Source of the DNA: Candidatus Harpocratesius repetitus
GTDB lineage: Archaea; Asgardarchaeota; Lokiarchaeia; Sigyniarchaeales; Promethearchaeaceae
Length of the DNA: 32,000 nt
Assembly (NCBI GenBank): GCA_021498095.1
Contig: JAIZWK010000001.1
Coordinates: 2,940,001 to 2,972,000, forward strand
Direction: 5' to 3'
The translations under genes were made by a program, and so were the position numbers. Below are positions 953 through 31,999 of this stretch, one piece after another; position 1 is the stretch's first letter; each line of letters opens with the position of its first letter. Under the pieces are notes generated by a model. It ran no database searches and was not told the origin of the DNA. It saw only the letters and a program-made list of their open reading frames with translations.

Positions 953-961
953 TTTTTTTCT

Positions 962-9853: not shown

Positions 9854-9895
9854 TTTTTTCTCTTTTTTAGGAAAGTAATTTTTGTTTATTTTTTG

Positions 9896-11674: not shown

Positions 11675-11681
11675 AACCTTC

Positions 11682-11973: not shown

Positions 11974-12294
11974 TTAAATAATTTCTATGTTTTCTTCAGC
12001 ATATCCAAGCTTCAATAAAAATTGTTTTAATTTCTTGCGATGATCACCTTGAATTTCAATAGAATTCCCTTTTACAGTGCCTCCACTCGCACAAAAACTT
12101 TTCGCTTTTTTTGCTATCTTCTTAAGGTTTGCTCCTTGAAAATTGCTAAAGTTCACGACACTAGTTAATTTTCCCCACTTTCTTTTATCAATTGTGATAG
12201 TAATTTTCTGGTCTTCTTGAGCTAATGATTCACAAACACATAACTCGATAGGAAGCGAGCATTTTGGACATATTCCGACTAAATCTTTTGGCAA
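11974..12294 (-). CDS. sui1: Translation initiation factor aIF1 (SUI1), apparent TTG start
   Basis: ICPKCSLPIELCVCE...KRKWGKLTSVV...FCASGGTVKGNSIEIQGDHR. SD GGAGTGA 10 nt before the TTG; no in-frame ATG near the N-terminus. Confidence 0.93.
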   Translation of the reverse strand: MPKDLVGICPKCSLPIELCVCESLAQEDQKITITIDKRKWGKLTSVVNFSNFQGANLKKIAKKAKSFCASGGTVKGNSIEIQGDHRKKLKQFLLKLGYAEENIEII

Positions 12295-12416
12295 ATCTGG
12301 TATTTCACTCCAATAATTAAATATTATAATTAAATTGTATAAAGAACCAGCTATGGATCTTTACTAATGTAAGTTACTATTGATAAAATATAAATCTACT
12401 CGTTAAAATTTGGTTG

Positions 12417-13943: not shown

Positions 13944-13990
13944 TTCATTGTTCGTGCCTCTCTGGTATTTCCCTCATTTGCTTAGTTCTT

Positions 13991-14040
13991 TAATTATTTG
14001 TAATTCTTTTTAATCACTTGTAATTATTTTTAATTTTTGA
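13991..14040 (-). repeat. 10-bp period degenerate tandem repeat straddling the MFS stop codon
   Basis: TAATTATTTG TAATTCTTTT TAATCACTTG TAATTATTTT TAATTTTTGA. Confidence 0.7.
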
Positions 14041-15537: not shown

Positions 15538-15667
15538 ACCCTCTCATCCGTTTTGTTCCAATAATAATTATTAATTTGATGATTTTACCGATAACATGAT
15601 AATAAAAATGAACCTAATAAGATTTTTGGGAAATAAGAAAAAAAAGTAGGATCTAGCTTTGATTTTT

Positions 15668-15710
15668 TTGATTAATTTGATTAATTTGATCAATTTGATA
15701 AATTTGATCA
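15668..15710 (-). repeat. 9-bp tandem repeat just after the membrane protein stop
   Basis: TTGATTAAT TTGATTAAT TTGATCAAT TTGATAAAT TTGATCA. Confidence 0.88.
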
Positions 15711-15712
15711 TT

Positions 15713-16819
15713 TTAATTTGGTTCTAGTTGAATTAAAGCACCGCATTTTGTACATTTTCTAGCAGAAAGTGGCAACTTTTTTTTACAAACTGGACAATAA
15801 TAAAAATCCTTTGAAGGATCTACCTTAATATTATGGATTTTTGATGCGGAAGGGTGTTTTATATAAAACTTATCATCGTTTTGATAAATTTTTAATTTTT
15901 GTTCTCGAATATAGAAAAAAGCACTTCCAATTAAAGCAGGGAAAGGCAAAAACCAAATGTTCTCCAGTAAATGCATGCAAAAGTAATAAAATAATACAAT
16001 CCAGATATTTCGGCTTGAAGGATCAATAAATTGATAATATTTTTCATCAGAATATCCTAACATTCCAATCATAGGATCTGAAATAATTGCTCCAATTAGA
16101 AAAGGAATAAAAACACCAATAAAAAACAGAATTAACATGGTTTTAACATTACCTTGTAGATAAAATTTTCCTCCCCGAATAGCTTGTCTTCCGCCATGTT
16201 CATCAATAATTATTGCATGAATAATAAAAATACCTTTAATGAAAAAATAAACCCCCGGAAGAATCATCAAAATTGTACCAAATGTAATGATAATTGGAAA
16301 AAAGATGAGATAAAGAATTGTTATTAGTGTTTGCTCTTTTGATTGGAAAGCAGCAAAAACAGACAATTTCCATGAACGTGAACCGTCAAGTTCGTTTGTT
16401 TGAATATAATAGATTTTTCCTGTTGTAATTAAAGTTAAGAATAAAATTGAAAAGAAGGGAATTGACCATCTTCCTAATAGTGTTAATGAAGTAAAAATCT
16501 GATAATTTGTTTTTAGAGAATTCTCTTCTGGAGTCAAAGTACCACTATTGGATATTTTTTCAATAATTGCAGTATATTCTGGATTTATATTGTGAATGTA
16601 CCAATCAGCGGGAATATAGATTAATCGAAATACTGCAGTTAAAAAACTAATTAATACTAATAAACCTAAAGTTGGAAGTGCCGTCTTTATGAATATTTTC
16701 CAAGCATCGGCAAATACATCCTTTAAATGGATGGAAGTTGGTTGAAGTCCAAGGGAATTGTCCGGAGGAGTAGTATCAAGATCAATTCGTTGTGAATGAT
16801 TTTTTGAAGTAGGATTCAT
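15713..16819 (-). CDS. Polytopic membrane protein with C-terminal zinc ribbon
   Basis: About 6 TM segments; C-terminal CPVC-x10-CTKC. Confidence 0.75.
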   Translation of the reverse strand: MNPTSKNHSQRIDLDTTPPDNSLGLQPTSIHLKDVFADAWKIFIKTALPTLGLLVLISFLTAVFRLIYIPADWYIHNINPEYTAIIEKISNSGTLTPEENSLKTNYQIFTSLTLLGRWSIPFFSILFLTLITTGKIYYIQTNELDGSRSWKLSVFAAFQSKEQTLITILYLIFFPIIITFGTILMILPGVYFFIKGIFIIHAIIIDEHGGRQAIRGGKFYLQGNVKTMLILFFIGVFIPFLIGAIISDPMIGMLGYSDEKYYQFIDPSSRNIWIVLFYYFCMHLLENIWFLPFPALIGSAFFYIREQKLKIYQNDDKFYIKHPSASKIHNIKVDPSKDFYYCPVCKKKLPLSARKCTKCGALIQLEPN

Positions 16820-16920
16820 TATTGGTAAGAATGAAATGATGTAGAAAATATTTATTATTATATTCTAATACAAATGGATACACAATTGCAGATATTCAAT
16901 ATTAATCTTAGTTGAAAAAA

Positions 16921-17889
16921 ATGATAACATATCAAGATATTCAGCAAGCATATCAGCGAATTAAATCTGAAATTAATCATACTCCTGTAATGACTTCCAG
17001 AATGCTGAATAAAGATTTAGGAGCAGAAGTTTACTTTAAATGTGAGAATTATCAACGAGTGGGAGCTTTTAAATTTCGAGGTGCTTTTAATGCCATCAGT
17101 CAACTTTCTCATGAGCAGAAAAAGTTAGGAGTTGTTACTCATTCAAGTGGGAATCATGCTCAAGCTGTGGCATTAGCCGCTTCTATATTACATATTCCAG
17201 CTACAATTGTTATGCCTGAAAACTCCCCTAAAGTAAAAATAAATGCAACTCAAAATACTTACGGAGCCCGAGTTGTTTTATGTAAGAATACTGTTCAATC
17301 CAGGCAAGAAACATGCCAAAGAATAATGGAAAATGAAGGTCAAACCTTAATTCATCCTTATGATAATGATGAAATAATTGCTGGAGCAGGGACAGCTGCT
17401 TATGAATTGCTGTTAGAAGTTAATGATCTTGACATAATAATTACTCCAGTTGGTGGCGGAGGATTACTAAGCGGAACCAGCATTGCTGCCAAAGGATTCA
17501 ATCAAAATTGCGAAATTTATGCAGGAGAACCTTTAAATGCCGATGATGCATATCGTTCATTAATTTCAGGAAAAATTCAAACCAACAAAAATCCAATAAC
17601 GATTGCAGATGGACTTCGAACTAATTTATGCCCTCGAACATTTCAAATCATCCAAAATAATGTAAATGCAATAGTTCGTGTATCAGAGAAGGAAATCATT
17701 AGTGCAATGCGTTTTCTATGGGAAAGAATGAAATTGGTTGTTGAACCATCCAGCGCAGTTCCCTTGGCTGCATTAAAAACTGGAGAAATCGAAATCAAAG
17801 ATAAAAAAATTGGAGTAATTTTAAGTGGGGGAAATGTCGATCTTAATGCATTTTTTGAATATCTATCTTCATACATTGCTGAAAAATGA
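16921..17889 (+). CDS. PLP fold-II serine racemase / Ser-Thr (or 3-hydroxyaspartate) dehydratase, no ACT domain
   Basis: FKCENYQRVGAFKFRGA (PLP Lys), VVTHSSGNHAQA, PVGGGGL, TIADGL, VEPS, ILSGGNVD. ATG 16921 is preferred over TTG 16912. Confidence 0.88.
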   Translation: MITYQDIQQAYQRIKSEINHTPVMTSRMLNKDLGAEVYFKCENYQRVGAFKFRGAFNAISQLSHEQKKLGVVTHSSGNHAQAVALAASILHIPATIVMPENSPKVKINATQNTYGARVVLCKNTVQSRQETCQRIMENEGQTLIHPYDNDEIIAGAGTAAYELLLEVNDLDIIITPVGGGGLLSGTSIAAKGFNQNCEIYAGEPLNADDAYRSLISGKIQTNKNPITIADGLRTNLCPRTFQIIQNNVNAIVRVSEKEIISAMRFLWERMKLVVEPSSAVPLAALKTGEIEIKDKKIGVILSGGNVDLNAFFEYLSSYIAEK

Positions 17890-17911
17890 AACGAATTAAG
17901 GAGGAAGCTAA

Positions 17912-18697
17912 GTGAAAATCGGATATATTCAGTTTAATCCTGTTTTTGGAGAAAAAGAAACAAATTTTCATACTGTAGAAAAAATAACTAAAGGAGTAAA
18001 AGCTGATTTACTGGTACTTCCAGAATTATTTGCTACAGGTTATACTTTCAATTCAAAAATCGAAGCGGAACAAATGTCGGAAAAACAAGGTGAAGAAACA
18101 ACCAATTTTTTGCAAGATCTTTCATCGTCTACTAGAGCTATTTTAGTTGGAGGATTCATTGAGAAAATTAATAATAAAATCTTTAATGCTGCTTTAGTGG
18201 TAAATGAGAAGCAAGTAATTGGCATATATGAAAAAGTTCATCTTTTTTACAAAGAGAAACTTTGGTTTGAGCCAGGTAATAGGGGATTTCAAGTCTGGAA
18301 ATTTCAGAACTGGAATCTTGGTGTGATGATATGTTTTGATTGGATATTTCCCGAATCTTGCAGATCACTCTCATTACAAGGAGCGGACATTATTGCCCAT
18401 CCTGCAAATTTAGTCCTTCCCTATTGTCAACGCTCTATGATAACCAGAAGCTTAGAAAATCGTGTCTTTACCATTACTGCGAATAGATTCGGTAAAGAGC
18501 ATCGTGGACAAGATAATTTTTCATTTTCTGGAGGTTCACAAATTACTGATCCAAGTGGAAATGTGCTCATTTCAGCAGAAAAAAATGAGACCAAAGTTGA
18601 TATTGTTGATATAGATCCTTCTGTAGCACATAATAAACAGATGAACGAATACAACAATCTTTTTAAAGATCGGAGAAATCAATATTATTTTTTATAA
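17912..18697 (+). CDS. Carbon-nitrogen hydrolase (nitrilase/amidase family)
   Basis: Catalytic triad motifs LPELF, YEKVHLF, ICFDWIFPE; ENRVF..TANRFG; GTG start with SD AAGGAGG. Confidence 0.92.
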   Translation: MKIGYIQFNPVFGEKETNFHTVEKITKGVKADLLVLPELFATGYTFNSKIEAEQMSEKQGEETTNFLQDLSSSTRAILVGGFIEKINNKIFNAALVVNEKQVIGIYEKVHLFYKEKLWFEPGNRGFQVWKFQNWNLGVMICFDWIFPESCRSLSLQGADIIAHPANLVLPYCQRSMITRSLENRVFTITANRFGKEHRGQDNFSFSGGSQITDPSGNVLISAEKNETKVDIVDIDPSVAHNKQMNEYNNLFKDRRNQYYFL

Positions 18698-18700
18698 CTA

Positions 18701-18744
18701 TTTTTTGACACTTTTTTGAAGCTTTTTTGATATTTTTTTGAATC
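18701..18744 (+). repeat. 11-bp phased T-tract repeat just after the nitrilase stop
   Basis: TTTTTTGACAC TTTTTTGAAGC TTTTTTGATAT TTTTTTGAATC. Confidence 0.85.
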
Positions 18745-21428
18745 GTTTAAATCTTAATGAAAAAAGATTCAGTATTAAGCGATTTATTTTTGTTTTTGCA
18801 AATTCTTTTATGGAAAAATCACCAAATGATCAATATATAATGCCAACCATTCATCTTGAAAAATCGGCTCAATCTTTAATGCTAAATTTTGGTGATCATG
18901 CCATAAATTTTCATCTTCATAATGATATAATTTATTTTTCTCTTCAAAATAACTCTATATCTTTAATGGACTGTACTGGTGCTATTTTTCTGCAGAAAGA
19001 TCGAAAATTATTCAAGTTAATTCCATCTATCATTAATAATTCCTTAGCTACTACTGAAATTATAGATTTTGATAACGAAATAGGAACTGGTAAGCAAATT
19101 CAATTAAAATGTTATTTTAAATCCTTGGAAGATTTAACACTGGAGCTTCCATGTCGATGGCGCTTTCAATTTTATACATATCGAAAAAATGGTCTAAAAT
19201 TTAATTCCAATCCTATTTTTTTAAGTATTCAGATATTACTGGATTTAATTCCAACTAAGTTAGCATCTTATGGATTATATGCTTATGCACCATTATATTG
19301 TGAAAATAACGGAACACTACATTTAATACAAGAAAATAAGATTCAAAATCCAGAGAATATCACTTTCTTTTCAAACGGATGGCAGTCTTGGTCGAATAAT
19401 TATTTACTTACCTATTATGATAAATGGACATCATCACCTGTTAAATTGGCGCGCATTAACATGGAAAATCAAGAAAAATTACTTAAGGGAAGATACCAAA
19501 CTGAATGGCACACAGTAATTTCTGATATAACAAGTCAATCGAACTTAATTCTTGCTTTCATTACTCTTAAAGATCAATTCTCTCGAATTGTAATGAATCG
19601 TCTCAAATCTGAAGGAAAAATCGAATGGTTATGCGCTTATTCACAATGTGATTCAATTATCCTTCAAGATTTGAATGAAGGTTTGCGTAAATCGGAAACC
19701 TTGATGGTTTCTTTAAATAAAACTCCTGAGGCTTATGAAATCCTAACAGAAATCTGCAGAATTGGGGGATCAATTGCCAAAAAACCAAATGCGGATAAAA
19801 TTTTAACAGGGTGGTGTAGCTGGTATTATTATTATACTAAAGTTAAGGAAACAGATGTAATTTCGAATTTAGAGTTCTTTAAGAACAATTCAGATTATCC
19901 TATAGATTTAATCCAGTTAGATGATGGTTATCAAACAGCTATTGGAGATTGGGGAACGCAAAATTCCCTGTTTAATTCAAAATTTCCTCATGGCTTAAAA
20001 TGGTTAGTAGAGAAAATTCATCAAACATCATTTCAGGCAGGACTTTGGATTACACCCTTCTTTATGACAAAAAATTCAGAATTCTTTCAAAAACACAATG
20101 AATGGATGCTGAAAAATAAAAAAAATAGGCCTGTATCGACTGCTTTCAATTGGGGTGCAAACCAATATGCTATTGATCTTAGCCGCCCTGAGGTCTTAAA
20201 TTATTTAACTAATCAAGCCCGAACTATATCTCATGAATGGGGTTTCGATTTTCTAAAAATCGATTTTTTATATGCTTCAGAAGCAGTTGATTTCATTTAT
20301 CATAATCAAAAATATTCACGCGCTCAAATTCTCAGAAGAGGTTTACAATCAATTCGAAATGGATTTGGAGATGCAAAGAAGATATTAGGATGTGGCTGTC
20401 CTCTTGGTCCCGCTGTAGGAATGGTTGATATTATGCGTATAGGACCAGATACGGCCGCAAGTTGGTTTAAAAACGAATTTTTGTTTTATAAAGTGGCAAA
20501 AATTTCGGTAACATCCTTAAAAGCTGCCTTAAAATCAACAATTCAACGCTCCTATATGCATAATACGTGGTGGATTAATGATCCCGATTGTGTTATTGTC
20601 AGAGAAAATCGATCCCAACTAACAGAAGCTGAAATTCAGTTAGAGTTAACCATTTTTGGTTTAAGTGGAGGACAAATCTTAATTTCTGATGATGAGAAAC
20701 GTGTAAGTCGAGAACGTCTGGATCTTTTAAACCGATTATTACCACCTTATTCACATTCATTTAAAAAATTAACACAAAATAAGGTAATTAAAAGAACAAA
20801 TCAAGATCAAGCAATATTGCCTGAATCAACTCCATTAGATTTATTTTCATCTCAATATCCTTCCCTTTTTGCTAAAACAATTGATATCTATAATATTTCT
20901 GCATCAAAGAGGCATTTAATATGCGTGATCAACTGGAATAACCATAAATCAGATAAGACATACTATCTAAATCAACTAATTATCTATAAGTACCATTGTT
21001 TATATAAAAAAGGGCAGCAATTTGTTGTTTTCGATTATTGGAATGAAGAAATACTAGGAATTTATAAATTTGATGAAAAAATTTTGTTGCAATCCATTCC
21101 CAGACATGGTTGCAAATACTTAGCATTAATTCCTCTTATTCAAGTCGAATCTTTTCCTTTATTTATTTCATCTACCATTCACATCTGTCAAGGTGTATTA
21201 GAAATTAAAAGAATAGAATTAAACGAAAAAAGTGGGGCAATGATAATCAATTTGGAAATACCAGGAAAACATGCAGGTGATCTATATTTCTTTGCTAAAG
21301 AAAAATTCTCCGTTCCATCATGTACTCACACAATTACAAAAAAGCAGACAAAATGGGGTTTTATTTATAAAATTCATGTATATATTGAATATTCAAGCAA
21401 AATTGAAATTGTTTGGGAAAGAAGATAA
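18738..21428 (+). CDS. GH36-type alpha-galactosidase (real start probably ATG 18810 or 18840)
   Basis: GWCSWYYYY, IQLDDGYQ, SKFPHGLK, GLWITPF, FLKIDF (nucleophile), MRIGPD (acid/base), WINDPDC. Confidence 0.88.
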   Translation: MNRLNLNEKRFSIKRFIFVFANSFMEKSPNDQYIMPTIHLEKSAQSLMLNFGDHAINFHLHNDIIYFSLQNNSISLMDCTGAIFLQKDRKLFKLIPSIINNSLATTEIIDFDNEIGTGKQIQLKCYFKSLEDLTLELPCRWRFQFYTYRKNGLKFNSNPIFLSIQILLDLIPTKLASYGLYAYAPLYCENNGTLHLIQENKIQNPENITFFSNGWQSWSNNYLLTYYDKWTSSPVKLARINMENQEKLLKGRYQTEWHTVISDITSQSNLILAFITLKDQFSRIVMNRLKSEGKIEWLCAYSQCDSIILQDLNEGLRKSETLMVSLNKTPEAYEILTEICRIGGSIAKKPNADKILTGWCSWYYYYTKVKETDVISNLEFFKNNSDYPIDLIQLDDGYQTAIGDWGTQNSLFNSKFPHGLKWLVEKIHQTSFQAGLWITPFFMTKNSEFFQKHNEWMLKNKKNRPVSTAFNWGANQYAIDLSRPEVLNYLTNQARTISHEWGFDFLKIDFLYASEAVDFIYHNQKYSRAQILRRGLQSIRNGFGDAKKILGCGCPLGPAVGMVDIMRIGPDTAASWFKNEFLFYKVAKISVTSLKAALKSTIQRSYMHNTWWINDPDCVIVRENRSQLTEAEIQLELTIFGLSGGQILISDDEKRVSRERLDLLNRLLPPYSHSFKKLTQNKVIKRTNQDQAILPESTPLDLFSSQYPSLFAKTIDIYNISASKRHLICVINWNNHKSDKTYYLNQLIIYKYHCLYKKGQQFVVFDYWNEEILGIYKFDEKILLQSIPRHGCKYLALIPLIQVESFPLFISSTIHICQGVLEIKRIELNEKSGAMIINLEIPGKHAGDLYFFAKEKFSVPSCTHTITKKQTKWGFIYKIHVYIEYSSKIEIVWERR

Positions 21429-21445: not shown

Positions 21446-21856
21446 TTATTTTACTTTTAGGATTTTTTTTACAATTGGAGTAAATTCTTCAAATTCATAG
21501 ATATTTCCGTTCCAATTTTTCATTGTTTCTGGAGTTATGAATTTTTCAAAGGCGTCAATAATAGCAGTCAGAATTTGATCAATTTTTTTTTCCTTCAATT
21601 TTGTTTCTTTACCTGCAATAAATACATAATAAAGTGGCATTTTTTTTCCAATTCTTAACATAATTCGTAATTTACCAAGTTCAAATGTTGAAATAAAATC
21701 ACCACTAGCCATACGTGCGAATTGTAAAACACCTGTAAGGTAACTGGCGGTTAATAACATTGATTGATCTTCTTTATTTTCTGTTTTTGTTGTACAGAAA
21801 TAAAATAAAATTTGACCACCGCGATCTAGAATGTATAATTCTTGTCGTTTGCTCAT
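21446..21856 (-). CDS. Stand-alone longin-domain protein
   Basis: ELYILDRGGQILF beta-hairpin, ASYLTGVLQFA helix, three strands, C-terminal helices ending WNGNIYEFEEF..IV; 136 aa. Confidence 0.7.
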   Translation of the reverse strand: MSKRQELYILDRGGQILFYFCTTKTENKEDQSMLLTASYLTGVLQFARMASGDFISTFELGKLRIMLRIGKKMPLYYVFIAGKETKLKEKKIDQILTAIIDAFEKFITPETMKNWNGNIYEFEEFTPIVKKILKVK

Positions 21857-22042
21857 TGTAATACTCCGATATTTGTACCTAGTTAAATTTTTGTTCTATT
21901 TAAATATATTTTTCCTAATTATCGTGGATTTTTCGCATTTTTCTGAATTTTACAATTATTTAATAAATTACTAATCAAAAAAGATTAAACAAAAAAGTAA
22001 TATTTGAAAAATATAAAAAAAGCAAATTAGCAAGCTTAACAA

Positions 22043-23185
22043 TTAATCAGCTACAGAAATATCTTCACTGGAAGATTCTTTCTTAGTTGTTTCATAGGTC
22101 TTCTTGAAAATATAATATTGATCCTTCAAAGTATCTAAAGCCATTAAAAGGACTTGCTCATTTTGAGATTTTTCACGATATTGTTTTCGAATAGTGTCTA
22201 CCAGATATTCTGGATAAATTGGTTCGAGTTTAAAGTCACAAGTAAGACAATAATATTCATTTCCATTTGTATCTTGAAAAACTGCAATCATTTTATTTTC
22301 CCACATGATTTTCAAGACTTGATCCACATCATCTACACCCTTTTTACGAAGTTTTTCCAAATCATTACGGGTAACAATAGCTTCACGTAGTAGTTTCAGA
22401 ACTTCATAAGCAGGAGGATTCAAAATAATCTCTTCAATAATCTTAAGATTATCTGCTTCACTTGGGATGTAATTTGTAAAGAAATGTCTGACTTCAGTCT
22501 TATACATATCTACTAAAGTTTCAGGAAGATGTCTATCTACAGGGTCTTTCAATAATTGAATTGGTGGGAGCCGAAATATGGCAAGATCTTCGATCAGAAA
22601 CACCAAATCGGATGAAATTCCCTTTACTGAAACGACTTTAACCATACCATTTTTTACCAGTGATGCAATAACATTTTCGGAATCAACCAGACCATCCCGA
22701 TAAACATCTCGTAACCAAACCGCGAGTTCTGATTTTGGGATAGCCACTTCTTGGTGTAACCGATTTATTATCAAACGTTTTATCTCATTATTTATGATTG
22801 ATGCATAACGTTGTTCTTGAGTTAAAGTGGGGTAAACAGATAATCGTTGGAAATAAGTCGGCAAAATTTGTTCTAAATTTGGAGTTCCAATATTAGTTAG
22901 AATCTGCCGAGATATTTCTATCATCCCTTCTTCAAATGAATCAGGATCTTCAGTCGTTAACAATAAAAGAATCACATATATAGAAGATTCAGGACCAGTA
23001 TAATAAGAAGCAAGGTTAATTGGTCCTGCTGTTAGTGAAACCATACCTGCTTCTCCAGTAAACTCATGTTGCGAATATAATTGCATCATGGTTTTTTCTT
23101 CTAAATTGATTCCTTCGGGATATGTTGCAACGATTTCAACACCTGTTCGTTCATCCCAATGCATGATAACCATTCCACTTGGCAT
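22043..23185 (-). CDS. uDENN/longin-like N-terminal domain plus two winged-helix-like domains (NPRL2/DENN-like)
   Basis: GMVIMHWDERTGVEIVATYP start resembles the uDENN F/W-D-xx-G-P hairpin; two later helix-helix-helix-wing segments (KSEL...SLVKNGMVKV; RNDL...IMWENKMIAV). Confidence 0.6.
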   Translation of the reverse strand: MPSGMVIMHWDERTGVEIVATYPEGINLEEKTMMQLYSQHEFTGEAGMVSLTAGPINLASYYTGPESSIYVILLLLTTEDPDSFEEGMIEISRQILTNIGTPNLEQILPTYFQRLSVYPTLTQEQRYASIINNEIKRLIINRLHQEVAIPKSELAVWLRDVYRDGLVDSENVIASLVKNGMVKVVSVKGISSDLVFLIEDLAIFRLPPIQLLKDPVDRHLPETLVDMYKTEVRHFFTNYIPSEADNLKIIEEIILNPPAYEVLKLLREAIVTRNDLEKLRKKGVDDVDQVLKIMWENKMIAVFQDTNGNEYYCLTCDFKLEPIYPEYLVDTIRKQYREKSQNEQVLLMALDTLKDQYYIFKKTYETTKKESSSEDISVAD

Positions 23186-26100
23186 TTAAAATCCTCCTCC
23201 TTGTTTTTGGTCTTCAGAACCAATTTTAGATTCCATTTTGACAGCTTTTGGACCTTTTAAGTCTAAAATATCTTCTAAATCTAGATCAAGGAATTTCCAA
23301 GCATTTCCATACTTATCAGCAAGAAGTTCGTGATAACTACGCATAATTGGGTCATCACTTATTGTTGCATTTTTACTTATTTCCTTCATAGTCTGATCGA
23401 TCTTCTTAATTGTTTCAGGAATTCTAAGATATCGAATATACTTTGTGCTACCAACAATAGCAATTGCAATTAAAGCTACACTTCCACCAATATATACGAA
23501 TATTTTCGGAATATGAGTACCTGCAATTACATATTCTGGAGGTGTTATTGAAATTGTGATAGTGTAGGGATTAATTGAATAGTTTGCTTTCTGGATGTAA
23601 ATTGTTGCAGAGTCAGTAATAGCAGAAATCAATGCATTATATTCATCAGTATCAGTTTTAATAATATATTCATATACTCCAGGCTGTTTCTCTTCAAAAG
23701 AATATGTTTTTCCTCTATAATTCATAGTAACAGTAGCATTTGTCAATGGTTGATTATTATTCACTGGATCTGTCAAAGTTAATTGGATGATTATATCTTC
23801 ACCTTGTGGTTGGGATACTACATTATCTTGTAACTCCGATGGAACTGCCAATTTTACAGGTTTTGGTTCGATTTGTATTGTGATTGAACCAGCTCGTTCT
23901 AGATAATTTGCCTTACCCATATGAATTATCAAAAGGTAAGTACCAATTGATCTATTTGCAGTATCGAAATCTAAAAGATAGATTCCATTCCCTAACTCTT
24001 GAAGCTGACCGATTTGAGTTTCACCACTAACTTCCCATTCATAATAAGCTAAATCCGCATTTTCAATTCCATTTCCAATTGCATCTTCATAAGTAATCAT
24101 GAAAAGATGTTCTGTAGTTACATTTATCTTCAAAGTATTTTGTAAAAAGATGGAATTATTAATAGTTGTTTCAATTCGATTGATATCTACATAAATACTT
24201 AATGTTTGAGTTGTATATTGTGATTTAGCTGCTTGGATATGAATTGTATATGTTCCAACTCCGAGGAATTGGGTTGAATTGAATGTTATTTCATAATGAC
24301 CGCTACCTGTATGAATTAAATCTCCAGTAAAATCGGCAATCTGTCCTACAGAATATGTAATTAATGCATTTGTAATTGGAATGTCATTTACAAGATCTTC
24401 ATATAGAATACTAATGGTGAAATTTTCATTCCAAGTCAAGGAATAATCAACAGAATAATCACTCGTCATGTTAGTTGTTACAGTTAGAACATTTACTGTA
24501 ATTAGAACTTCACGAGCACCATAAGTCGATTTAGAGGCAGAAATAATAAATGTATAAGTGCCAGTTTGTTCTAAAAGTGTACTTGAAAATTCAATTAGAT
24601 AAATCCCAGATCCTTGGCCGATTAAGTTCCCAGTAAAACTAGAATCATCTGTAAGAGTATAAGTAACAGAAGCATTATTTATTGCTACAGGGTTATTCAA
24701 ATTTGTAACATTCATATATTGAACCTGAAGTATAATATTTTGTGTCCAATAGAGTGTGATTTCTTCATTTGAAGCATTAAGTTGAGTTGGAATTAAACCA
24801 ATATCAACAATTATGCTTAATTGTTTCGTTTCATATTGATTCTTCGTTGCAGTGACCAAAAATGTAAAAGTCCCTTGTCCAAAATCGTCAGCATTCAATG
24901 TAATATTGTACCAACCACTCCCAGTATGAGAAATTACTCCTGTATCAGAAAAACCATTTGGTCCTGTAACTTCATATGAGACAGTTGCATCAGATGTAAT
25001 TGGTATAGGAGTTCCTGTTTCATTGTTTTGATAAAGTAAAGCGAGAGTAAAGGAATTACCTAATTGAACTACGATTGATTCATCTACTGCAGTTAATGAA
25101 GTCGGGATAGTTGCAACTTCGACTGTAATAGTTAAGTTACGTGTTAAATAATGGTTTTTCTGAGCAATAATGTTATATACATATGTTCCTTTCTCTGGTA
25201 AATCTTCAGATGGATTAAAGGATTTTAAATAAACTCCATCGCTTAAATGTGTTAAAAATCCAGAACTTGTATATCCATTAGGACCAATTACAGTGTACGT
25301 AATTGTTCCATCAGTTATTGGAACAGTACTTGCTCCATGAGTATCTTCAAATGTACAATTTAATATATAATCATTTTCCCAAGCAACTGAAATCAATGTG
25401 CTTTCTGGTGTCAATCTTGTGGTGATTTGTTTTACATTTACAATAATGGAAATTCGCTGAGTTTCATATTCAGATTTACTTGCTTCAATTTGGATAGTAT
25501 AAGATCCTGTGGTTCCAAACATAGTTGAGCTGAAATCTTTTGAGTAATATCCGTTGCTTTGGAAATCTAAGGTACCTACAAGACTATCCATTCCAGAAAC
25601 ACTATAAGATACAGATGCATCTGTTGAGATCGGGATTGGATTTTGCGAATCGGAAACATCTTCATATGTGACTCCTAGAGTGAAAAGCTCTCCCCAATAT
25701 ATATCAATGGTTGTTGCATCAGGAGTTAAACTAGTTTGTACAATTGCTATGTCAACAGAAATTGTGAGAACTTGAGTTTCATATTGATTTTTTGTAGCAG
25801 TGACTACAAAAGTATATGTTCCCGCTTCAGGAAAAGTATGATTCTCTGCACTATATGTTATATTATAATCACCATTTCCTGTGTGGGATAACTGAGTATG
25901 ATTTTCATAACCATTTGGTCCTGTAAAATCAACAGATACATTTCCATCTGTAATAGCTACAGCCGCACCTCTAATATCCATAAATGTTGTTGAGATTGTA
26001 AAACTTTCTCCCCATGTTATTGCAATATTAGATTCTGGAGTAGTAAACTCTGTAGGAACAATTGATATATCAACAGTTATCCATACTTGACTTGTTTTGT

Positions 26101-29100
26101 AAAATTCCTTTTCTGCTAAAATTTGGAAATTATATTCACCTGCTTGTCCGAAATCAGTACTATTTAAGGTAATGCTGTAAATTCCAGGAGTTGCAGTTTC
26201 AGTCAATGGATGCGGTGTAAAAGTTGGATCTCCGAAAATATAATAATAGACATCGGCCCCACTTATTGCATAATTATTTACAACATCTGTATAATTTATT
26301 GTAAATGTAAAGTTCTCTTCCCAATAAAGTTCTATAGGATCAATGTAATCTGCACTGTTAATTGAAGTGTTTATCTCTTTAATAATTAAATCAAATGAAA
26401 GCGTCTGAGAACTATAATTCACATGACTAACATCAAAATTTATTTGATATTGTCCCAAACTTGCTACTTTAGATGTGTTTATTGAGAAGGTATAGTTTGT
26501 ATATCCACCACCACTTACTTCACTCATAGCTTGATTTGAATCATAATCCCAATCAATGGTTGCGGTGGCGCTGCCGACATCTGCAGAATTTGCTTGGTAA
26601 ACTAAAGTGACAGAGACTTGAGTACCATAATAAACTTCAAGAGTAGAACCTATAAGAGATGATTCAGTATAGACCGCTGCAGTTGTAGCAATGGGATTAA
26701 TTGTTATTGTTTTTACAAGAGGTGTTGGATCTCCGCCATATCCTGTAGTCGATGCCCAAACACTCAATTGAAAAACATTACTTGCTTCATCCACCGAAAT
26801 TCCATCCTTTTCAGGATTGATTTGAATACGATAAATTCCAGTACTTATTCGAGTAACACTTGCATTATAATAAACTTCTTGTAAGGTTTCTACATTTTCT
26901 AAACGAACTCCTACTGAATCAGCATTAAATAATGTAGCTGGATTTGTTTTATAAGAAACAGATACATTTATGTCAAAGGATAGTGTGCTTGAAAAATCGA
27001 AGTTGGTTGGAATCGCTGTGATATTTGTAAGATATGTTTGGTAATCATCAGGGTATATAGAGACATTAAATGTAACCTCATTATATCCAGCTAAAGTAAA
27101 ATTATAGGAATCCACAAAACTTCCAGTATCACTAGCATTTTTAAAAGTTTTTTGACTTCCGCCATAATAAACATAAGCGGTATAGTTTCCCTGTGAAGGT
27201 GATCCATCTTTCAACTTATACCAAAAATTGAATCCAAATGAATCTTGAGCAACACCAAGTTCATCACTTGTTAAATTAACTAATGAAACACCATTTTGAA
27301 CAATTTCTACCATTGCACCTTCAATATTAACTCCATCAGGATCAACTACAGTAATTTTTTGCTGAGCAATAGGGATTTCTACATCTTTTACATAAGTTTC
27401 CTGTAATTCCATATAAATTTGACCATATTGAACAATATTTGAATCATTATGAGTGCGAATCTTGATATTTAATCCATAAATTGGTTTAACATAATTCCAG
27501 AGATAATATTCTTCTGACCAATCTTTGACATTATTTCCAGTAAAATCTTCAGTGTATGTTTTTAGTAGATTAAATCCACCTTGATTATCTAAACCATAAA
27601 CATCAACTCTAGAAATATATGAACTAATATTAGAGAGAGAAATATTCCACCAATTTATCGATTGGTCACCGATTTGATTAATAGAAGTCCCAGTAGTTCC
27701 ATTTGCATAAATGAACCATTGATATTCATAATCTCCACCGGTTAAATCAGTTGGAACACTTGCATTTAGATCATGAGTTGCTTCAGTTAGTGCTTGTTGA
27801 TCTAAGGAACTATTAAGAATAGGTGTAATTGATGGGTTGTAATTAGTATTTTGATAATCAATAGAGAAATTATATTCATTTCCAGGATTTCTATTTAACC
27901 AAATTGCAGTCGCTTCACCAGAACCGTCTAAATTATATTCAGCAAGATTTGAAGTATCACCCCATGTTCCTTCATAAAGTGTTAGATTTCCAAGACTTAC
28001 GGGGTTATTATCTACATCATGTACTTTGAAATGAATTTGCCAGAGATCTGAATCAATAATAAATGTTTCCCTAGTATTATTAATTGTAACTGTCCCTGAA
28101 AATATTGAATGATTCCCAAATTGATTTTGGATTGAAACATTTAAGTTGTAGGTTGAAAAATCAAGATCTGCAAATTGTGCTGTTCCATCAGATGAACTTA
28201 TTAAGATTTCAGAATAATCCCCTGGACCGTTTTTATTATCTAGTATCACACCTAAATTGGAAATTGGATACTTATCAACATCATAAACTTGAATTGTAAG
28301 ATCTGGTGGCTTAATTTGTGAGGAATAAGTTGAAATTTCAGGTGCAGCTGCAAGTATACGAGAATCATATGCACCAAAAATATTTGTCATTTGACTAGAA
28401 TAAACATAATAATTTCCGATATAATATCCTTCTTCAGGACTTTGCCATTCGGGATTTGTCATATCAGATTGTTCCCAAACTGATATCCGCCCATCATAAT
28501 ATGTACTTGTATCAGGTCCACTATAACAATTAGCAATTATTTCCATCATTCCATCGTTGTCTGGATCGCCAAATCTTGGAAATGTGATTCTTGAATACAA
28601 AACATCTTCTTTATACCATTCTATTTGTCCTAAATTGATTGAATTATCTCCCTCAACTTCATAAACTCGAATAGTAGTTGAATTTGTATTCTCACTATTT
28701 CCCATTAATACTTCCATATTACCATCATTATCCCAGTCTGCAACATCAGAAACAATACCATTTGGTGTATTTGTTATAAAATTAGCTTTCCAATCTAGTG
28801 CAGTTCCATTCCATTCCCATAAATGAATATAACCATAATAATTTCCACCTAGTAAAACCTCAATTTTTCCATCAAAGTCAATATCTTCAGCAATTATTGA
28901 ATAAACATATCTAGGAATATGTCGATCAGTGTTATTACTTGTATAACCATACCAATCATAAGAACTCGTAGTAGTATTATATAGAAAATATCCAAATCCA
29001 TAATTTCCTGCATAATTACCTACTACTATATCCATCCAACCATCATTGTTAAGATCAACTAAAGATGCATGCATTATTCGATATGGAAGAATTAAGCGAT

Positions 29101-30271
29101 TTTCGATATACATCGTTTTATTTGAGTAAATTCCATAAATTACGATAGAATATTTACTATTTGCATCATAACCATAATCAGGTGCTATGATTTCTGTTTT
29201 TCCATCATGATCCATATCCCATGCATAAATATCATAATGAGTACTACCGTATGTGGTATTTAATCCTTCAAAATAATAACGTGTGTTCCAAATAGATTGC
29301 CACTGACCTGTTTCGCTGTTATAATCAACAAATTTAAAATCATCATTTATATCATTCATTACTAATTCTACATTGCCATCACCATCAAAATCACCTGCTG
29401 CCATATCAAAAAAGTTCTGCAAATAATCATATTGGCGTGGTTCTCCCATGGTTAAAGAGAGATCTTCATCCCAAATGGTTAATTCACCATATCCAATATC
29501 TGCGCTTTTTCGATAACTACCATAGGCTAAATGATAATTCCCATCACTCACTGGGTCAGAATACCAATTGTAGTTAGTTTTCCAAGTTAAAGCTGAGTCA
29601 AGAGAATCTTTCGGACCATTTGATACAATATCAAAATAAACCATCAAGGTTACATTAGTATTTGCTTCCATCATTCCAGGAATTTCAATCCATAATCGAC
29701 CAGTTGCATTATTCAAAGCATTGAAAACATTTTCTGTGGGAATGAATAACGATTTTAAAAGATACTGTTTCGAATCAGAGTAACTTGAGTTTGCAACAAT
29801 CATAGAACCTGAAGCATCATATTGAATCACTCTGATGGAATTTTCATCAAATTCCTCCGATGATAAACTTAAATCGCTTAAAATCGAAGTAAAATTAAGA
29901 TATAAATTAATTGAATAGTTTGTTCTATTATAGAAGGATGAATTTACTTCTATAGGAAAACGATATGTCCAATCAGTGCTCCACCATTCATAATCTAATC
30001 CAGAATCGTAATTTGCAGAACTTGCAGGATTAAATTGGGGTGCTTGGATATCATTTATCGGCGAAAATTCTGATTCATCTGAAAATGTATCTCCATTGAA
30101 ATAAGTCAAAGGAGAACTCTGAGATGACTCAGAATTAGAAGAAATTGCGATATTCACATTCCAAGTTGATAAAGAAAGTAGAAATATCACAATTATACCC
30201 GAAATATAACGAGAGTTCTTAGAATTCATATGAAAACCACTTATCATTGAACTTTTGATTAAATGAATCAC
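23186..30271 (-). CDS. Giant secreted, membrane-anchored surface protein: signal peptide, DUF2341-like domain, FG-GAP/VCBS beta-propeller, carboxypeptidase-regulatory-like domains, about 11 Ig-like repeats, TM helix, about 85-aa cytoplasmic tail
   Basis: Six DxDxDG-type motifs (GDFDGDG, DMDHDG, DLNNDG, DIDFDG, DWDNDG, DPDNDG); about 100-aa repeats with W.E.FT...Y.D and G.Y..I.A.K..Y; many NxS/T sequons; TM IFVYIGGSVALIAIAIVGS. Start may be ATG 30229. Confidence 0.88.
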   Translation of the reverse strand: MIHLIKSSMISGFHMNSKNSRYISGIIVIFLLSLSTWNVNIAISSNSESSQSSPLTYFNGDTFSDESEFSPINDIQAPQFNPASSANYDSGLDYEWWSTDWTYRFPIEVNSSFYNRTNYSINLYLNFTSILSDLSLSSEEFDENSIRVIQYDASGSMIVANSSYSDSKQYLLKSLFIPTENVFNALNNATGRLWIEIPGMMEANTNVTLMVYFDIVSNGPKDSLDSALTWKTNYNWYSDPVSDGNYHLAYGSYRKSADIGYGELTIWDEDLSLTMGEPRQYDYLQNFFDMAAGDFDGDGNVELVMNDINDDFKFVDYNSETGQWQSIWNTRYYFEGLNTTYGSTHYDIYAWDMDHDGKTEIIAPDYGYDANSKYSIVIYGIYSNKTMYIENRLILPYRIMHASLVDLNNDGWMDIVVGNYAGNYGFGYFLYNTTTSSYDWYGYTSNNTDRHIPRYVYSIIAEDIDFDGKIEVLLGGNYYGYIHLWEWNGTALDWKANFITNTPNGIVSDVADWDNDGNMEVLMGNSENTNSTTIRVYEVEGDNSINLGQIEWYKEDVLYSRITFPRFGDPDNDGMMEIIANCYSGPDTSTYYDGRISVWEQSDMTNPEWQSPEEGYYIGNYYVYSSQMTNIFGAYDSRILAAAPEISTYSSQIKPPDLTIQVYDVDKYPISNLGVILDNKNGPGDYSEILISSSDGTAQFADLDFSTYNLNVSIQNQFGNHSIFSGTVTINNTRETFIIDSDLWQIHFKVHDVDNNPVSLGNLTLYEGTWGDTSNLAEYNLDGSGEATAIWLNRNPGNEYNFSIDYQNTNYNPSITPILNSSLDQQALTEATHDLNASVPTDLTGGDYEYQWFIYANGTTGTSINQIGDQSINWWNISLSNISSYISRVDVYGLDNQGGFNLLKTYTEDFTGNNVKDWSEEYYLWNYVKPIYGLNIKIRTHNDSNIVQYGQIYMELQETYVKDVEIPIAQQKITVVDPDGVNIEGAMVEIVQNGVSLVNLTSDELGVAQDSFGFNFWYKLKDGSPSQGNYTAYVYYGGSQKTFKNASDTGSFVDSYNFTLAGYNEVTFNVSIYPDDYQTYLTNITAIPTNFDFSSTLSFDINVSVSYKTNPATLFNADSVGVRLENVETLQEVYYNASVTRISTGIYRIQINPEKDGISVDEASNVFQLSVWASTTGYGGDPTPLVKTITINPIATTAAVYTESSLIGSTLEVYYGTQVSVTLVYQANSADVGSATATIDWDYDSNQAMSEVSGGGYTNYTFSINTSKVASLGQYQINFDVSHVNYSSQTLSFDLIIKEINTSINSADYIDPIELYWEENFTFTINYTDVVNNYAISGADVYYYIFGDPTFTPHPLTETATPGIYSITLNSTDFGQAGEYNFQILAEKEFYKTSQVWITVDISIVPTEFTTPESNIAITWGESFTISTTFMDIRGAAVAITDGNVSVDFTGPNGYENHTQLSHTGNGDYNITYSAENHTFPEAGTYTFVVTATKNQYETQVLTISVDIAIVQTSLTPDATTIDIYWGELFTLGVTYEDVSDSQNPIPISTDASVSYSVSGMDSLVGTLDFQSNGYYSKDFSSTMFGTTGSYTIQIEASKSEYETQRISIIVNVKQITTRLTPESTLISVAWENDYILNCTFEDTHGASTVPITDGTITYTVIGPNGYTSSGFLTHLSDGVYLKSFNPSEDLPEKGTYVYNIIAQKNHYLTRNLTITVEVATIPTSLTAVDESIVVQLGNSFTLALLYQNNETGTPIPITSDATVSYEVTGPNGFSDTGVISHTGSGWYNITLNADDFGQGTFTFLVTATKNQYETKQLSIIVDIGLIPTQLNASNEEITLYWTQNIILQVQYMNVTNLNNPVAINNASVTYTLTDDSSFTGNLIGQGSGIYLIEFSSTLLEQTGTYTFIISASKSTYGAREVLITVNVLTVTTNMTSDYSVDYSLTWNENFTISILYEDLVNDIPITNALITYSVGQIADFTGDLIHTGSGHYEITFNSTQFLGVGTYTIHIQAAKSQYTTQTLSIYVDINRIETTINNSIFLQNTLKINVTTEHLFMITYEDAIGNGIENADLAYYEWEVSGETQIGQLQELGNGIYLLDFDTANRSIGTYLLIIHMGKANYLERAGSITIQIEPKPVKLAVPSELQDNVVSQPQGEDIIIQLTLTDPVNNNQPLTNATVTMNYRGKTYSFEEKQPGVYEYIIKTDTDEYNALISAITDSATIYIQKANYSINPYTITISITPPEYVIAGTHIPKIFVYIGGSVALIAIAIVGSTKYIRYLRIPETIKKIDQTMKEISKNATISDDPIMRSYHELLADKYGNAWKFLDLDLEDILDLKGPKAVKMESKIGSEDQKQGGGF
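23193..23200 (-). promoter_or_regulatory. Shine-Dalgarno GGAGGAGG embedded in the last codons of the giant gene
   Basis: ...GGA GGA GGA TTT TAA ATG: the stop directly abuts the start of the 380-aa gene. Confidence 0.8.
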
Positions 30272-30483: not shown

Positions 30484-31146
30484 TTAAAAAATAATACTTT
30501 GAATTACATAAAGTATATTTAAGTAGAAAATTTTTGTAACCCACCAAAAGATAATTAATTCAATATAAGCTTCAATTATGCCCATTATTGTATCAGATAC
30601 AAAATGACACCCCAGCATTATTCGAGAAATGGCAATTAATAAATTCAAAATAAAAAATAAAGGAATACTCCAAAAAGGCAACCAAATTAACGCAATTAAC
30701 CCATATAAAATTGTAGAATGATGACAATGACCAGATGGAAAACTATAACCATGTCCTGTACTATCTAAGCGAATAATTGTCTCATTTTGCTTGAAAGGAC
30801 GGTGTCTTTTAATCAAATTTTTAATTATATAATAAATCACGAAAGATTGAAAAAATCCGGTGAAAAAAAGAGTAATATAAGTTAAATCCTTAATATATAA
30901 TCCATAAACACCAAAAAAAAGAAAAACAAAAAGCCAAATTCTTGGATCTCCCAAAAAGGACAGAATTTGCCAAATCCAACGAATTTTTTGTAAATTTGAA
31001 TTATGATATAAAAACTCTGTAAGTTTTTTATCTTTACTATCAAAAATAGGAAACATTTGAGCTATAAAGTCTGATTCTTGATTTCTATTCTGAAATAAAG
31101 CAGAATTATTTTTTTCATCTATTGAATTACTTTGTTGTTGAGTCAT
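30484..31146 (-). CDS. PAP2-family membrane phosphatase (lipid/isoprenyl-phosphate phosphatase-like)
   Basis: KNLIKRHRP, YSFPSGH, SRIMLGCHFVSD. Confidence 0.92.
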   Translation of the reverse strand: MTQQQSNSIDEKNNSALFQNRNQESDFIAQMFPIFDSKDKKLTEFLYHNSNLQKIRWIWQILSFLGDPRIWLFVFLFFGVYGLYIKDLTYITLFFTGFFQSFVIYYIIKNLIKRHRPFKQNETIIRLDSTGHGYSFPSGHCHHSTILYGLIALIWLPFWSIPLFFILNLLIAISRIMLGCHFVSDTIMGIIEAYIELIIFWWVTKIFYLNILYVIQSIIF

Positions 31147-31999
31147 TTTTTTTCTCCTGTCTTTTTTGGAGTTTTAAAGCCATAGTATGAAGCTTCATAA
31201 TTTCAAAAGGAACACGTAAACAGAATCGAACATGAAATCCTGAATAAGTCTGTCTGCGATAAAAATTAAATAAACTCATATAATGTTTTGAAAAACCATG
31301 AGAAGTAAAATAATTGCAGATTTCTGTAAGTTTGGCTGTTTTTTGAAATAAATAAAAAAAAGAAGCCCGAAGTGCCCATTTATATGCTTCTAAAATATAT
31401 TTATTAAATTTCCGATCAAAAGGGATAATCAATATGGCTCCATAAGCTAAAAAAAGTGTCATTAAAAGAGATTTTAGAATTTGTAGATATGAATATGGAG
31501 TTTCATCCATTGATAGATCTAATTGTCCATATAACACAGTTGCACCTTTTTTCAGCGAATCAAGAACAATCTTATCTGGGGCTAAAAACCTTGAAATAGT
31601 TCGATTTACCGAAAGTATTCTTGCAAACTTATCATTCTGCCAATCATCTTCCCTACAAATGAAATGAGAGCAAAACATTCCTGTTTTTCGCTCTACTACG
31701 CGAAGAATTCTCTCAATTAAGTTTTTTGGATATGAAAGATAATTATGTTTGATTTCTATGGTTTGTAAAATATGATGAATTTTTCTTATCTTTCTAAAGG
31801 AGACTTTATTTGAAACAACTAATAATAAATCAACGTCAGAATTATTCGTGATTGTCCCATAAGAAAGAGAACCAAATAAAACAATTGATTTTATTGAATC
31901 TTTACCAAGATAATGTGAAACTGTAGAAACTACTTCAAAAATATATTTTTGTGCATCCTTTGGTAACTTTAAGATTTTATTATTTTTAGATAAAAGATT
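31127..31999 (-). CDS. Pol-beta-like nucleotidyltransferase with helical C-terminal domain, 5' end outside the window
   Basis: The frame is open upstream of the listed ATG 31678 to the window edge and reads SIVLFGSLSYGTITNNSDVDLLLVV (GS...DxD). Overlaps the PAP2 gene by 20 bp. Confidence 0.82.
   Translation of the reverse strand, partial: NLLSKNNKILKLPKDAQKYIFEVVSTVSHYLGKDSIKSIVLFGSLSYGTITNNSDVDLLLVVSNKVSFRKIRKIHHILQTIEIKHNYLSYPKNLIERILRVVERKTGMFCSHFICREDDWQNDKFARILSVNRTISRFLAPDKIVLDSLKKGATVLYGQLDLSMDETPYSYLQILKSLLMTLFLAYGAILIIPFDRKFNKYILEAYKWALRASFFYLFQKTAKLTEICNYFTSHGFSKHYMSLFNFYRRQTYSGFHVRFCLRVPFEIMKLHTMALKLQKRQEKKNDSTTK

Follow-up and report, generated by a model that had tools for sequence, protein, structure and literature searches.

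What joins three neighbouring genes, encoding a giant surface protein, a cytoplasmic protein of 380 residues, and a small longin-fold protein, in an Asgard archaeon? The genes lie on the minus strand of a 32,000-nucleotide stretch (the window) of the closed 4.36-Mb genome of Candidatus Harpocratesius repetitus, and the closest database relatives of the window proteins carry the names Candidatus Harpocratesius, Lokiarchaeum, and Promethearchaeota. An earlier interpretation made from the letters alone (the sequence-only reading) had proposed a surface receptor with a cytoplasmic adaptor, tied to small GTPases or membrane trafficking. The three open reading frames (ORFs) of 2361 (from a GTG), 380, and 136 residues, the junction between the first two, and the 186-nucleotide gap before the third are all as claimed there, according to the ORF list and the sequence. 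By sequence comparison the conserved unit is two genes, a giant with a tail domain of ∼85 residues and an abutting gene for the 380-residue protein, here termed the adaptor. The preferred interpretation, to which a probability of roughly 0.6 is assigned, is that of an Asgard-wide two-gene cassette consisting of a surface protein and a tail-bound adaptor, with a GTPase-type client as the most likely further partner.

The case for a two-gene unit begins at the junction, which reads GGAGGAGGA TTT TAA ATG, the stop codon of the giant gene directly touching the ATG of the adaptor gene. The 16S rRNA 3′ ends of both genome copies are ...GGAUCACCUCCU, with the anti-Shine-Dalgarno CCUCC, so that the GGAGG in the last glycine codons of the giant gene is a perfect Shine-Dalgarno match. 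The 35 other Loki-type loci examined all have the adaptor ATG −1 to +3 nucleotides from the stop of a long same-strand ORF, and in 35 of 35 a GGAGG is found 7–15 nucleotides before that ATG. This conservation of the junction is far beyond chance. A chance adjacency of the giant and adaptor genes is ruled out by conservation and by the gene fusions described below. The claim of the sequence-only reading that the last codons of the giant gene form the Shine-Dalgarno sequence of the next gene is borne out by the junction, the anti-Shine-Dalgarno, and the 35 loci. The invariant Gly-Gly near the C-terminus of the giants would be imposed by the Shine-Dalgarno sequence of the adaptor gene, as a case of dual coding (window 23189–23200).

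The pair recurs within the genome and across the phylum. A second cassette in the same genome, ∼2.7 Mb away, encodes a giant of 2598 residues whose stop is 1 nucleotide from the gene of a 377-residue adaptor. Identity between the two adaptors is 62%; between the two giants it is 41% over the C-terminal 1063 residues, a part that includes the transmembrane helix and the tail. A hidden Markov model (HMM) of the tail matches exactly two ORFs in the genome, and close adaptors likewise number exactly two, a 1:1 correspondence. The two adaptors belong to different clades of the family tree, and the duplication is thus old. Lokiarchaeum ossiferum (CP104013) harbors three tandem cassettes (1–19714) and a fourth elsewhere, each with a gap of 1 nucleotide. 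The adaptor profile matches 293 of 400 genomes of the phylum (E ≤ 1e-20), including 73 of the 90 high-quality ones; the adaptor is present in 13/13 genomes of the window's own family and 133/135 of the largest family, and is nearly absent from some families (1/31, 0/12, and 1/22). Distant lineages keep the pair in either gene order with the tail motif still detected (E 2.8e-13 and 2.2e-5): type-I proteins of 2216 and 1551 residues that still match the tail HMM follow the adaptor in some, and type-I proteins of 1610 and 868 residues precede it in others. Conservation of gene order had been named by the sequence-only reading as a check; the giant–adaptor pair is conserved across Asgard genomes, and the small longin is not.

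Two further observations concern the adaptor family. The tandem adaptors of L. ossiferum score nearly equally against the family profile (662, 662, and 661 bits), and the giants paired with them vary in length, in head, and in the sequence next to the membrane, which suggests recent homogenisation of the adaptors or strong constraint on them beside fast-evolving receptors. Outside the window, at 2138982–2149964 of the same genome, a distant paralogue set of the adaptor lies within 11 kb; it comprises a protein of 346 residues that has the whole domain arrangement of the adaptor (E 6e-26), a 127-residue longin-only relative of the adaptor N-terminal domain (E 1.4e-22), and a 681-residue ORF with an Arf-like GTPase domain at 2149566–2149964.

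Gene fusions and a predicted complex both point to physical association of the tail with the adaptor. Eleven protein clusters of 756–1956 residues end in a whole adaptor at 44–49% identity. The order is the same in all 11, namely transmembrane helix, tail domain, short linker, and full adaptor, and one of the fusions was verified on DNA. The complex model of tail and adaptor, a check put forward in the sequence-only reading, has an ipSAE of 0.76 (0.75–0.77 between runs), and the best of three controls has 0.00. The same ipSAE mark is reached by 58 of 80 solved complexes and by 2 of 110 mismatched pairs, counts that apply only approximately here because the alignments were custom-made. At least 75% of contacts are common to the runs, and the partner has a pLDDT (predicted local distance difference test score) of 72. 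The predicted interface comprises adaptor residues 200–241 and 319–357 and residues 12–63 of an 88-residue tail piece, which places the adaptor-binding part of the tail at 23264–23419. Conserved residues are covered on both sides, including the proline and tryptophan of the tail, and the longin domain of the adaptor is left free. Since no relative with a solved structure is found by sequence, recall of a known complex by the model is unlikely. The model supports tail–adaptor binding and does not show it. With the conserved abutment, the 1:1 relation of tails and adaptors, and the in-frame fusions, it upholds the receptor–adaptor arrangement that had been proposed.

The fold of the adaptor provides insights into what it may do at the membrane. 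The AlphaFold2 (AF2) model, built from 35 homologues (pLDDT 87.6; predicted template modelling score 0.78), consists of a longin domain with the topology b-b-a-b-b-b-a (strands 4–11 and 15–22; helix 30–43; strands 47–53, 56–62, and 69–76; helices 81–98 and 103–115), two winged-helix units, and long C-terminal helices. In VIA-align, an aligner independent of Foldseek, the top match of the longin domain is a 362-residue chain of GATOR1 (8fw5_B; Z 12.5, root-mean-square deviation 2.6 Å, 119 aligned residues), taken to be NPRL2 from its length. Further matches are a Lokiarchaeota longin (Z 11.5), Npr2 of the SEA complex (10.8), and Vamp7 (10.6), followed by Lst4 (10.4), DENND1A (10.1), sedlin (10.0), and FNIP2 (about 10); sigma and mu chains of the adaptor protein (AP) complexes (Z 8.2–9.5) and roadblock chains (Z 8.1–8.4) are also found. 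The fold searches taken together also give the longin domains of Mon1/Ccz1 and Fuzzy. Foldseek matches of the adaptor include GATOR1 chains (NPRL2/NPRL3), Fuzzy, CCZ1, DENND10/11, and longin SNAREs. In the Swiss-Prot part of the AlphaFold DB, NPRL2 ranks first among whole-chain matches (E 2.3e-4, probability 0.99), at a global TM-score of only 0.24. The sequence-only reading had expected longin folds from structure searches, and these were returned (NPRL2, Lst4, FNIP2, DENND1A, and Mon1/Ccz1). Of its description of the protein as uDENN/longin with winged helices, the longin and winged-helix parts stand in the model and the fold searches; uDENN is too specific, as there is no central or downstream DENN part. 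Membership in the tripartite DENN proteins was rejected because DENND1A aligns to residues 1–120 only and the rest is two winged helices.

Sequence searches place the family apart from characterised proteins. The adaptor has no Pfam match, and a scan of 35 members gave scattered weak matches only, with no NPR2/NPR3 family even at E ≤ 1. A profile search of PDB sequences with the adaptor family returned only two chance matches (E 0.6). The 432 homologues in the protein database are all uncharacterised, with every named one from Asgard archaea, and the relatives in a protein atlas are only 'hypothetical protein' clusters of Promethearchaeota and Thorarchaeota.

The winged helices allow another function to be considered, that of a transcription factor tethered to the membrane until ligand sensing by the surface protein releases it to DNA. 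Both helical units match DNA-binding winged helices of the ArsR/MarR type (Z 8.1–8.8), and one source labelled a homologue as an ArsR-family regulator. The protein is, on the other side, strongly acidic (isoelectric point (pI) 4.8, net charge −20), and the helices at the recognition position, SENVIASLVK and VDQVLKIMWE, have a single lysine each and no arginine. The tail is predicted to bind at the second winged helix, the 11 fused clusters join the protein permanently to a membrane protein, and the best whole-protein fold matches, NPRL2 and subunits of ESCRT-II, use winged helices for protein contacts. A role as a transcription factor is thus highly improbable.

The longin domain is the most conserved part of the adaptor. 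It contains 24 of the 56 invariant columns of the family (residues 1–125), and the fact that the most conserved domain is outside the tail interface implies a second conserved partner. In the first hairpin, W10, R13, and G15 do not vary, and at least 90% of the members have D11; GP and WD motifs have been placed at this hairpin in a study of longins that act as GTPase-activating proteins (GAPs) (PMC12290439), and the same 2025 study, by way of the GP motif and an arginine finger, connects one class of longins from Asgard archaea with those of eukaryotic GAPs. The domain is itself acidic (pI 4.2).

NPRL2 and NPRL3 (Npr2 and Npr3 in yeast) of GATOR1/SEACIT are the closest known parallels, likewise having an N-terminal longin followed by domains of the winged-helix type at about the length of the adaptor. 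GATOR1/SEACIT is the GAP complex for RagA/Gtr1, and the neighbouring gene of the adaptor in other Asgard lineages encodes a GTPase. The adaptor differs in having no sequence-level relation to NPRL2/NPRL3 in Pfam or PDB searches, in the predicted binding of its C-terminal half to a surface-protein tail, in that no catalytic arginine is placed in it, and in the restriction of its family to Asgard archaea. To our knowledge, NPRL2 is not known to bind the tail of a surface protein, and we know of no DEPDC5-like partner of the adaptor. NPRL2-like longin families have been catalogued in Asgard genomes (bioRxiv 10.1101/2020.10.19.343400) and are enriched in L. ossiferum (PMC9834061). The adaptor family is probably among these NPRL2-like clusters. 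The operons named in the two catalogue papers are only those of ESCRT and of a LAMTOR1-like protein, a Rab-like GTPase, and DENN, none with surface proteins (bioRxiv 10.1101/2020.10.19.343400; PMC9834061). Our literature searches, the scope of which did not extend to subscription-only papers, found no description of a gene pair of surface protein and longin adaptor.

The proposal of a GTPase client is based on genes found next to the adaptor in other lineages. Of 14 adaptor loci from distant lineages, 7 encode within 1.5 kb a protein that consists of an N-terminal domain of 125–170 residues and an Arf-like GTPase, and an eighth does so at 1.8 kb; GTPase genes in the lineages with an adjacent GTPase occur at about one per 56–100 kb, and related genomes are not independent in this count. 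One operon with overlapping stops and starts (G002:C1:2340000-2356000, 6119–12967) encodes a 1610-residue type-I protein, a 374-residue adaptor, and a 306-residue protein with an N-terminal domain and an Arf-like GTPase. Beside the fused gene verified on DNA lie two flanking GTPase genes whose products have extended N-terminal domains; one of these products has a sub-threshold Roadblock/LC7 match. A genome of the same class has a recurring block of a longin-only gene (126–139 residues; homologous to the longin domain of the adaptor), an Arf-like GTPase fusion of 528–573 residues, and then an adaptor (G128:C6:272000-291900, 2245–11072; G128:C1 ∼442741–446018; G128:C11 ∼119819–124648), and at the G128:C6 site a type-I surface protein follows the adaptor. 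Longin–GTPase fusions have been described, and the GTPase genes of MK-D1 are generally not in operons with roadblock or longin genes (PMC10933270).

The third gene of the window raises the question of whether the unit has a third part. Its product matches Fuz_longin_1 of Pfam (PF19036; 28.8 bits against a cut-off of 26.1) over residues 7–113 and is basic (pI 9.4). The family has 454 matching cluster representatives (E ≤ 0.001), most of the best 150 being stand-alone proteins of 120–150 residues. Ten longer proteins among these 150 were scanned and contain fusions to tetratricopeptide repeats (TPRs), a tandem longin, and a longin with a weak winged helix-turn-helix match, with no GTPase domain; a word-based search for longer relatives gave no fused forms. 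At the profile level, the family resembles, along its entire length, the N-terminal domains of the adaptor-adjacent GTPases (hhalign probability 89.8%, E 1.8e-6, 113 columns), and the adaptor longin domain has no profile similarity to either (probability below 2%). As to the TPR proteins, the relatives P0171, P0214, and P0233 form the C-terminus of proteins of 535–694 residues, and TPR proteins of 684 and 662 residues are encoded close to the second cassette of this genome and to the cassette syntenic with it, respectively.

In an obligate stoichiometric module of giant, adaptor, and 136-residue longin, the core would be a longin–longin heterodimer. The trio is kept in the relatives at 97% and 83%, the second cassette also adjoins a small longin gene, and the two longins are each other's best paralogue in the genome, so that both old cassettes have one. 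A basic small longin would suit the acidic longin domain of the adaptor, and a remote similarity links the small longin to the longin domain that adaptor-adjacent GTPases carry elsewhere. The wider distribution speaks against an obligate module: in two closed genomes from within the family, orthologues of the small longin (67% and 56% identical) are megabases from any cassette, none is present at the cassette syntenic with the second cassette or at the sister cassette of the window's clade, and none was found in the examined flanks of other Loki-type loci. The longin at the second cassette is on the opposite strand. Archaeal transcription terminates at oligo-T tracts, and archaeal promoters have a TATA box; in the spacer behind the adaptor stop, runs of T7, T5, T6, and T6 are followed, ahead of the longin ATG, by a TATA-like TTTAAATA and by a GGAG. 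The spacer therefore probably holds a terminator and a separate promoter, which suggests a separate transcript for the small longin. The obligate trio is quite unlikely, and the small longin as a conserved third member, as the sequence-only reading had it, is not borne out. By the loci compared, the adjacency is limited to this genus. The longin paralogues beside two old cassettes hint at a lineage-specific partnership, an idea with which the opposite charges of the small longin and the adaptor longin domain would fit.

Returning to the cassette of surface protein, tail-bound adaptor, and GTPase-type client, several points weigh against this interpretation. Tail binding is argued from a model and natural fusions, and translational coupling at the TAA-ATG site is inferred from the sequence. 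No GTPase gene adjoins either cassette (the nearest are 7.4 kb beyond the giant gene and 26 kb from the second cassette, in a genome with 52 Arf-family-like matches), and no GTPase was found in the examined flanks, mostly of 1.5 kb, of about 34 Loki-type loci. The relatives of the 136-residue longin include no GTPase fusions among the best 150 of 454, and in BLASTP this longin aligns only weakly with two GTPases encoded beside adaptors (E 0.003 and 1.2). The adaptor longin domain has no sequence match to characterised longins of GAPs or guanine nucleotide exchange factors in Pfam and PDB sequences, and no catalytic residue can be placed in it. The GTPase link of the sequence-only reading is thus not visible at this locus and receives indirect support from the longin-fused Arf-like GTPases beside adaptors elsewhere in Asgard archaea; it is plausible but indirect.

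The same points can be accommodated if the adaptor is an escort that acts in the assembly, sorting, or quality control of the giant (insertion, glycosylation, positioning, or turnover), with no signal and no GTPase partner. All of the tail-binding evidence fits an escort equally well, the lack of an adjacent GTPase at both cassettes and in the examined Loki-type flanks is in line with it, and a dedicated escort would have to be made at the membrane together with its giant. Such a role leaves the most conserved domain of the adaptor, which is not used for tail binding, without a function; it also does not account for longin-GTPase genes as operon partners in other lineages, and permanent in-frame fusion would be unusual for a transient escort. 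An escort without a GTPase partner is unlikely.

With the tail-bound adaptor and its GTPase-type client as the preferred interpretation, the cassette would work as follows. The ribosome that ends the tail would meet GGAGG in the last glycine codons and restart at the abutting ATG, so that, judging from the junction, synthesis of the adaptor would take place at the membrane and keep pace with that of the giant. The adaptor would clamp the membrane-proximal motifs of the tail with its second winged helix and C-terminal helices, as predicted by the model and supported by the natural fusions, and the acidic, highly conserved NPRL2-like longin domain would be left unoccupied to serve as a docking platform. 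As its client, a partner of the longin or roadblock type would be most likely, in particular a longin-fused Arf-like small GTPase, and the surface protein would thereby be coupled to GTPase-controlled sorting, positioning, or signalling. In this genus the gene of the 136-residue longin occupies the place of the longin-GTPase gene of some other lineages, and its product may be a lineage-specific partner.

The giant itself appears, from its sequence, to be a glycosylated type-I surface protein with an exchangeable head. Its gene probably starts at the ATG at 30247 rather than at the GTG, since the gene calls of close relatives begin there, 8 codons inside, to give 2353 residues. The N-terminal hydrophobic segment is a signal peptide or signal anchor. 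The head matches FG-GAP_3 of Pfam with 51.2 bits (cut-off 26.9; five stretches) and FG-GAP with 25.9 bits (cut-off 22.1), and six D-x-D/N-x-D/N-G motifs are found between residues 294 and 574. As to a putative seven-bladed beta-propeller, the AF2 model of the head (residues 215–680, from a 4-sequence alignment) is all-beta with ∼24 strands and has a pLDDT of only 50.3, because of which it was kept out of fold searches. The stalk has at least eight tandem repeats of ∼105 residues (roughly residues 1300–2140), probably Ig-like beta-sandwiches as judged from sequence, with Filamin and MG2 matches that are both sub-threshold; the stalk is the part of the giant common to the paralogous giant. Sequons for N-glycosylation number 58, against 35.5 expected from composition. 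The tail scores 105 bits with the tail HMM and has the motifs R-I-P-x-x-[IV]-K close to the membrane and W-x-x-L-[DG]-L-x-L-x-x-I-L; invariant across 29 aligned tails are I, P, K, W, and the C-terminal GG.

The single-pass surface protein with FG-GAP repeats and a cytoplasmic tail described in the sequence-only reading is confirmed by the transmembrane helix, the Pfam matches, and the translation; its label 'integrin-like' holds as an analogy only. Integrin alpha chains likewise have an FG-GAP head, a beta-sandwich stalk, one transmembrane helix, and a short tail bound by an adaptor, the last being predicted here. Only the FG-GAP repeats are homologous, and they are one of several interchangeable heads: the second giant of the genome has no FG-GAP match in Pfam, and the heads of paralogous cassettes differ, e.g. 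Laminin_G_3 and CarboxypepD_reg. The giant tail starts TKYIRYLRIPETIKK and does not contain the GFFKR motif, and the fold of the adaptor is unrelated to talin or kindlin. We know of no beta subunit for the giant, and no search was aimed at one. The coordinates of the features are collected in Table 1.

Table 1. Positions of the cassette features and of the adjoining small longin gene in the window, with the basis of each assignment.
Feature	Position	Strand	Basis
Giant type-I surface protein gene	23186..30271	−	ORF, translation, gene calls of relatives (2353 and 2351 residues)
N-terminal hydrophobic segment, residues 25–43	30143..30199	−	Kyte-Doolittle window 1.91
FG-GAP repeat head, roughly residues 285–600	28472..29419	−	Pfam matches and motif positions
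Stalk repeats	23852..26374	−	Repeat anchors at residues 1378, 1484, 1589, 1904, 2006, 2110
Single transmembrane helix, residues 2254–2276	23444..23512	−	Hydropathy up to 2.26; kept in paralogue
Conserved cytoplasmic tail domain, 85 residues (2277–2361)	23189..23443	−	Alignment of 29 tails, tail HMM
Shine-Dalgarno GGAGGAGGA inside last Gly-Gly-Gly codons of giant gene	23192..23200	−	Sequence, 16S rRNA 3′ end
TAA-ATG stop/start abutment	23183..23188	−	Sequence; same layout in 35 other Loki-type loci
Cytoplasmic adaptor gene, 380 residues (longin, winged helix, winged helix)	22043..23185	−	ORF, AF2 model
Adaptor longin domain, residues 1–121	22823..23185	−	VIA-align match to 8fw5_B
Adaptor first winged-helix unit, residues 123–206	22568..22819	−	Model; ArsR/MarR-type winged helix-turn-helix matches, Z 8.2–8.8
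Adaptor second winged-helix unit (243–323) and C-terminal helices (324–375)	22046..22459	−	Model, interface residues
186-nucleotide spacer, adaptor to longin gene	21857..22042	−	Sequence
Stand-alone longin gene, 136 residues	21446..21856	−	Pfam Fuz_longin_1; adjacency in 97% and 83% relatives

The genes around the cassette include none with an evident functional tie to it. The upstream flank (window 30484–31999) contains genes for a PAP2 phosphatase and a nucleotidyltransferase, and the downstream flank (window 16912–21428) genes for a GH31/melibiase-like protein of 896 residues, a CN hydrolase, and a pyridoxal phosphate enzyme; the synteny of both flanks is kept in the 97% and 83% relatives. 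Farther away, at 6632–11394 of the window, co-oriented genes encode an ornithine carbamoyltransferase, an amino-acid (carbamate-type) kinase, and a class-III aminotransferase, and the same cluster includes a 449-residue protein with a weak P-loop kinase match.

Known systems with related parts help to place the predicted arrangement. In AP complexes, sigma subunits and the N-terminal domains of mu subunits are longin-like, and recruitment is by Arf GTPases; the cassette would share with them a longin-fold protein at the tail of a membrane protein and, in some lineages, a nearby Arf-like GTPase. The adaptor is predicted to hold the tail through its winged-helix half, not through the longin, and adaptin trunk subunits are lacking, which makes the resemblance one of logic only. 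MglA–MglB and Ragulator–Rag are roadblock/longin GTPase platforms, by analogy the principle expected of the free longin of the adaptor, and the adaptor-adjacent GTPases elsewhere carry an N-terminal longin- or roadblock-like domain; those systems differ in having no attached surface receptor. A broader proposal, tentative and well short of even odds, is that Asgard archaea have their own transmembrane system from the surface to small GTPases, in which variable type-I receptors would recruit an NPRL2-like adaptor by means of a conserved tail and a longin-fused Arf-like GTPase would be regulated by, or would regulate, the adaptor longin. Such a system would be a prokaryotic forerunner of the logic by which receptor or cargo tails, adaptors, and small GTPases work together in the membrane trafficking and nutrient signalling of eukaryotes.

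The longin, roadblock, and small-GTPase genes of eukaryotic type in Asgard archaea are numerous, and almost none has a known partner or role. Gene order rarely helps to match Asgard GTPases to longin or roadblock partners (PMC10933270). For one large longin family the cassette points to a concrete partner, namely the inner tail of giant surface proteins, and the operons of some lineages point to a candidate GTPase as well. 'Complex surface proteins' have been seen on cultured Loki cells and proposed to mediate cell–cell contact (PMC9834061), and the giants may be among them. If true, the chain of surface protein, adaptor, and GTPase would connect the Asgard cell surface physically with the eukaryote-like regulators inside the cell, as the first link of this kind.

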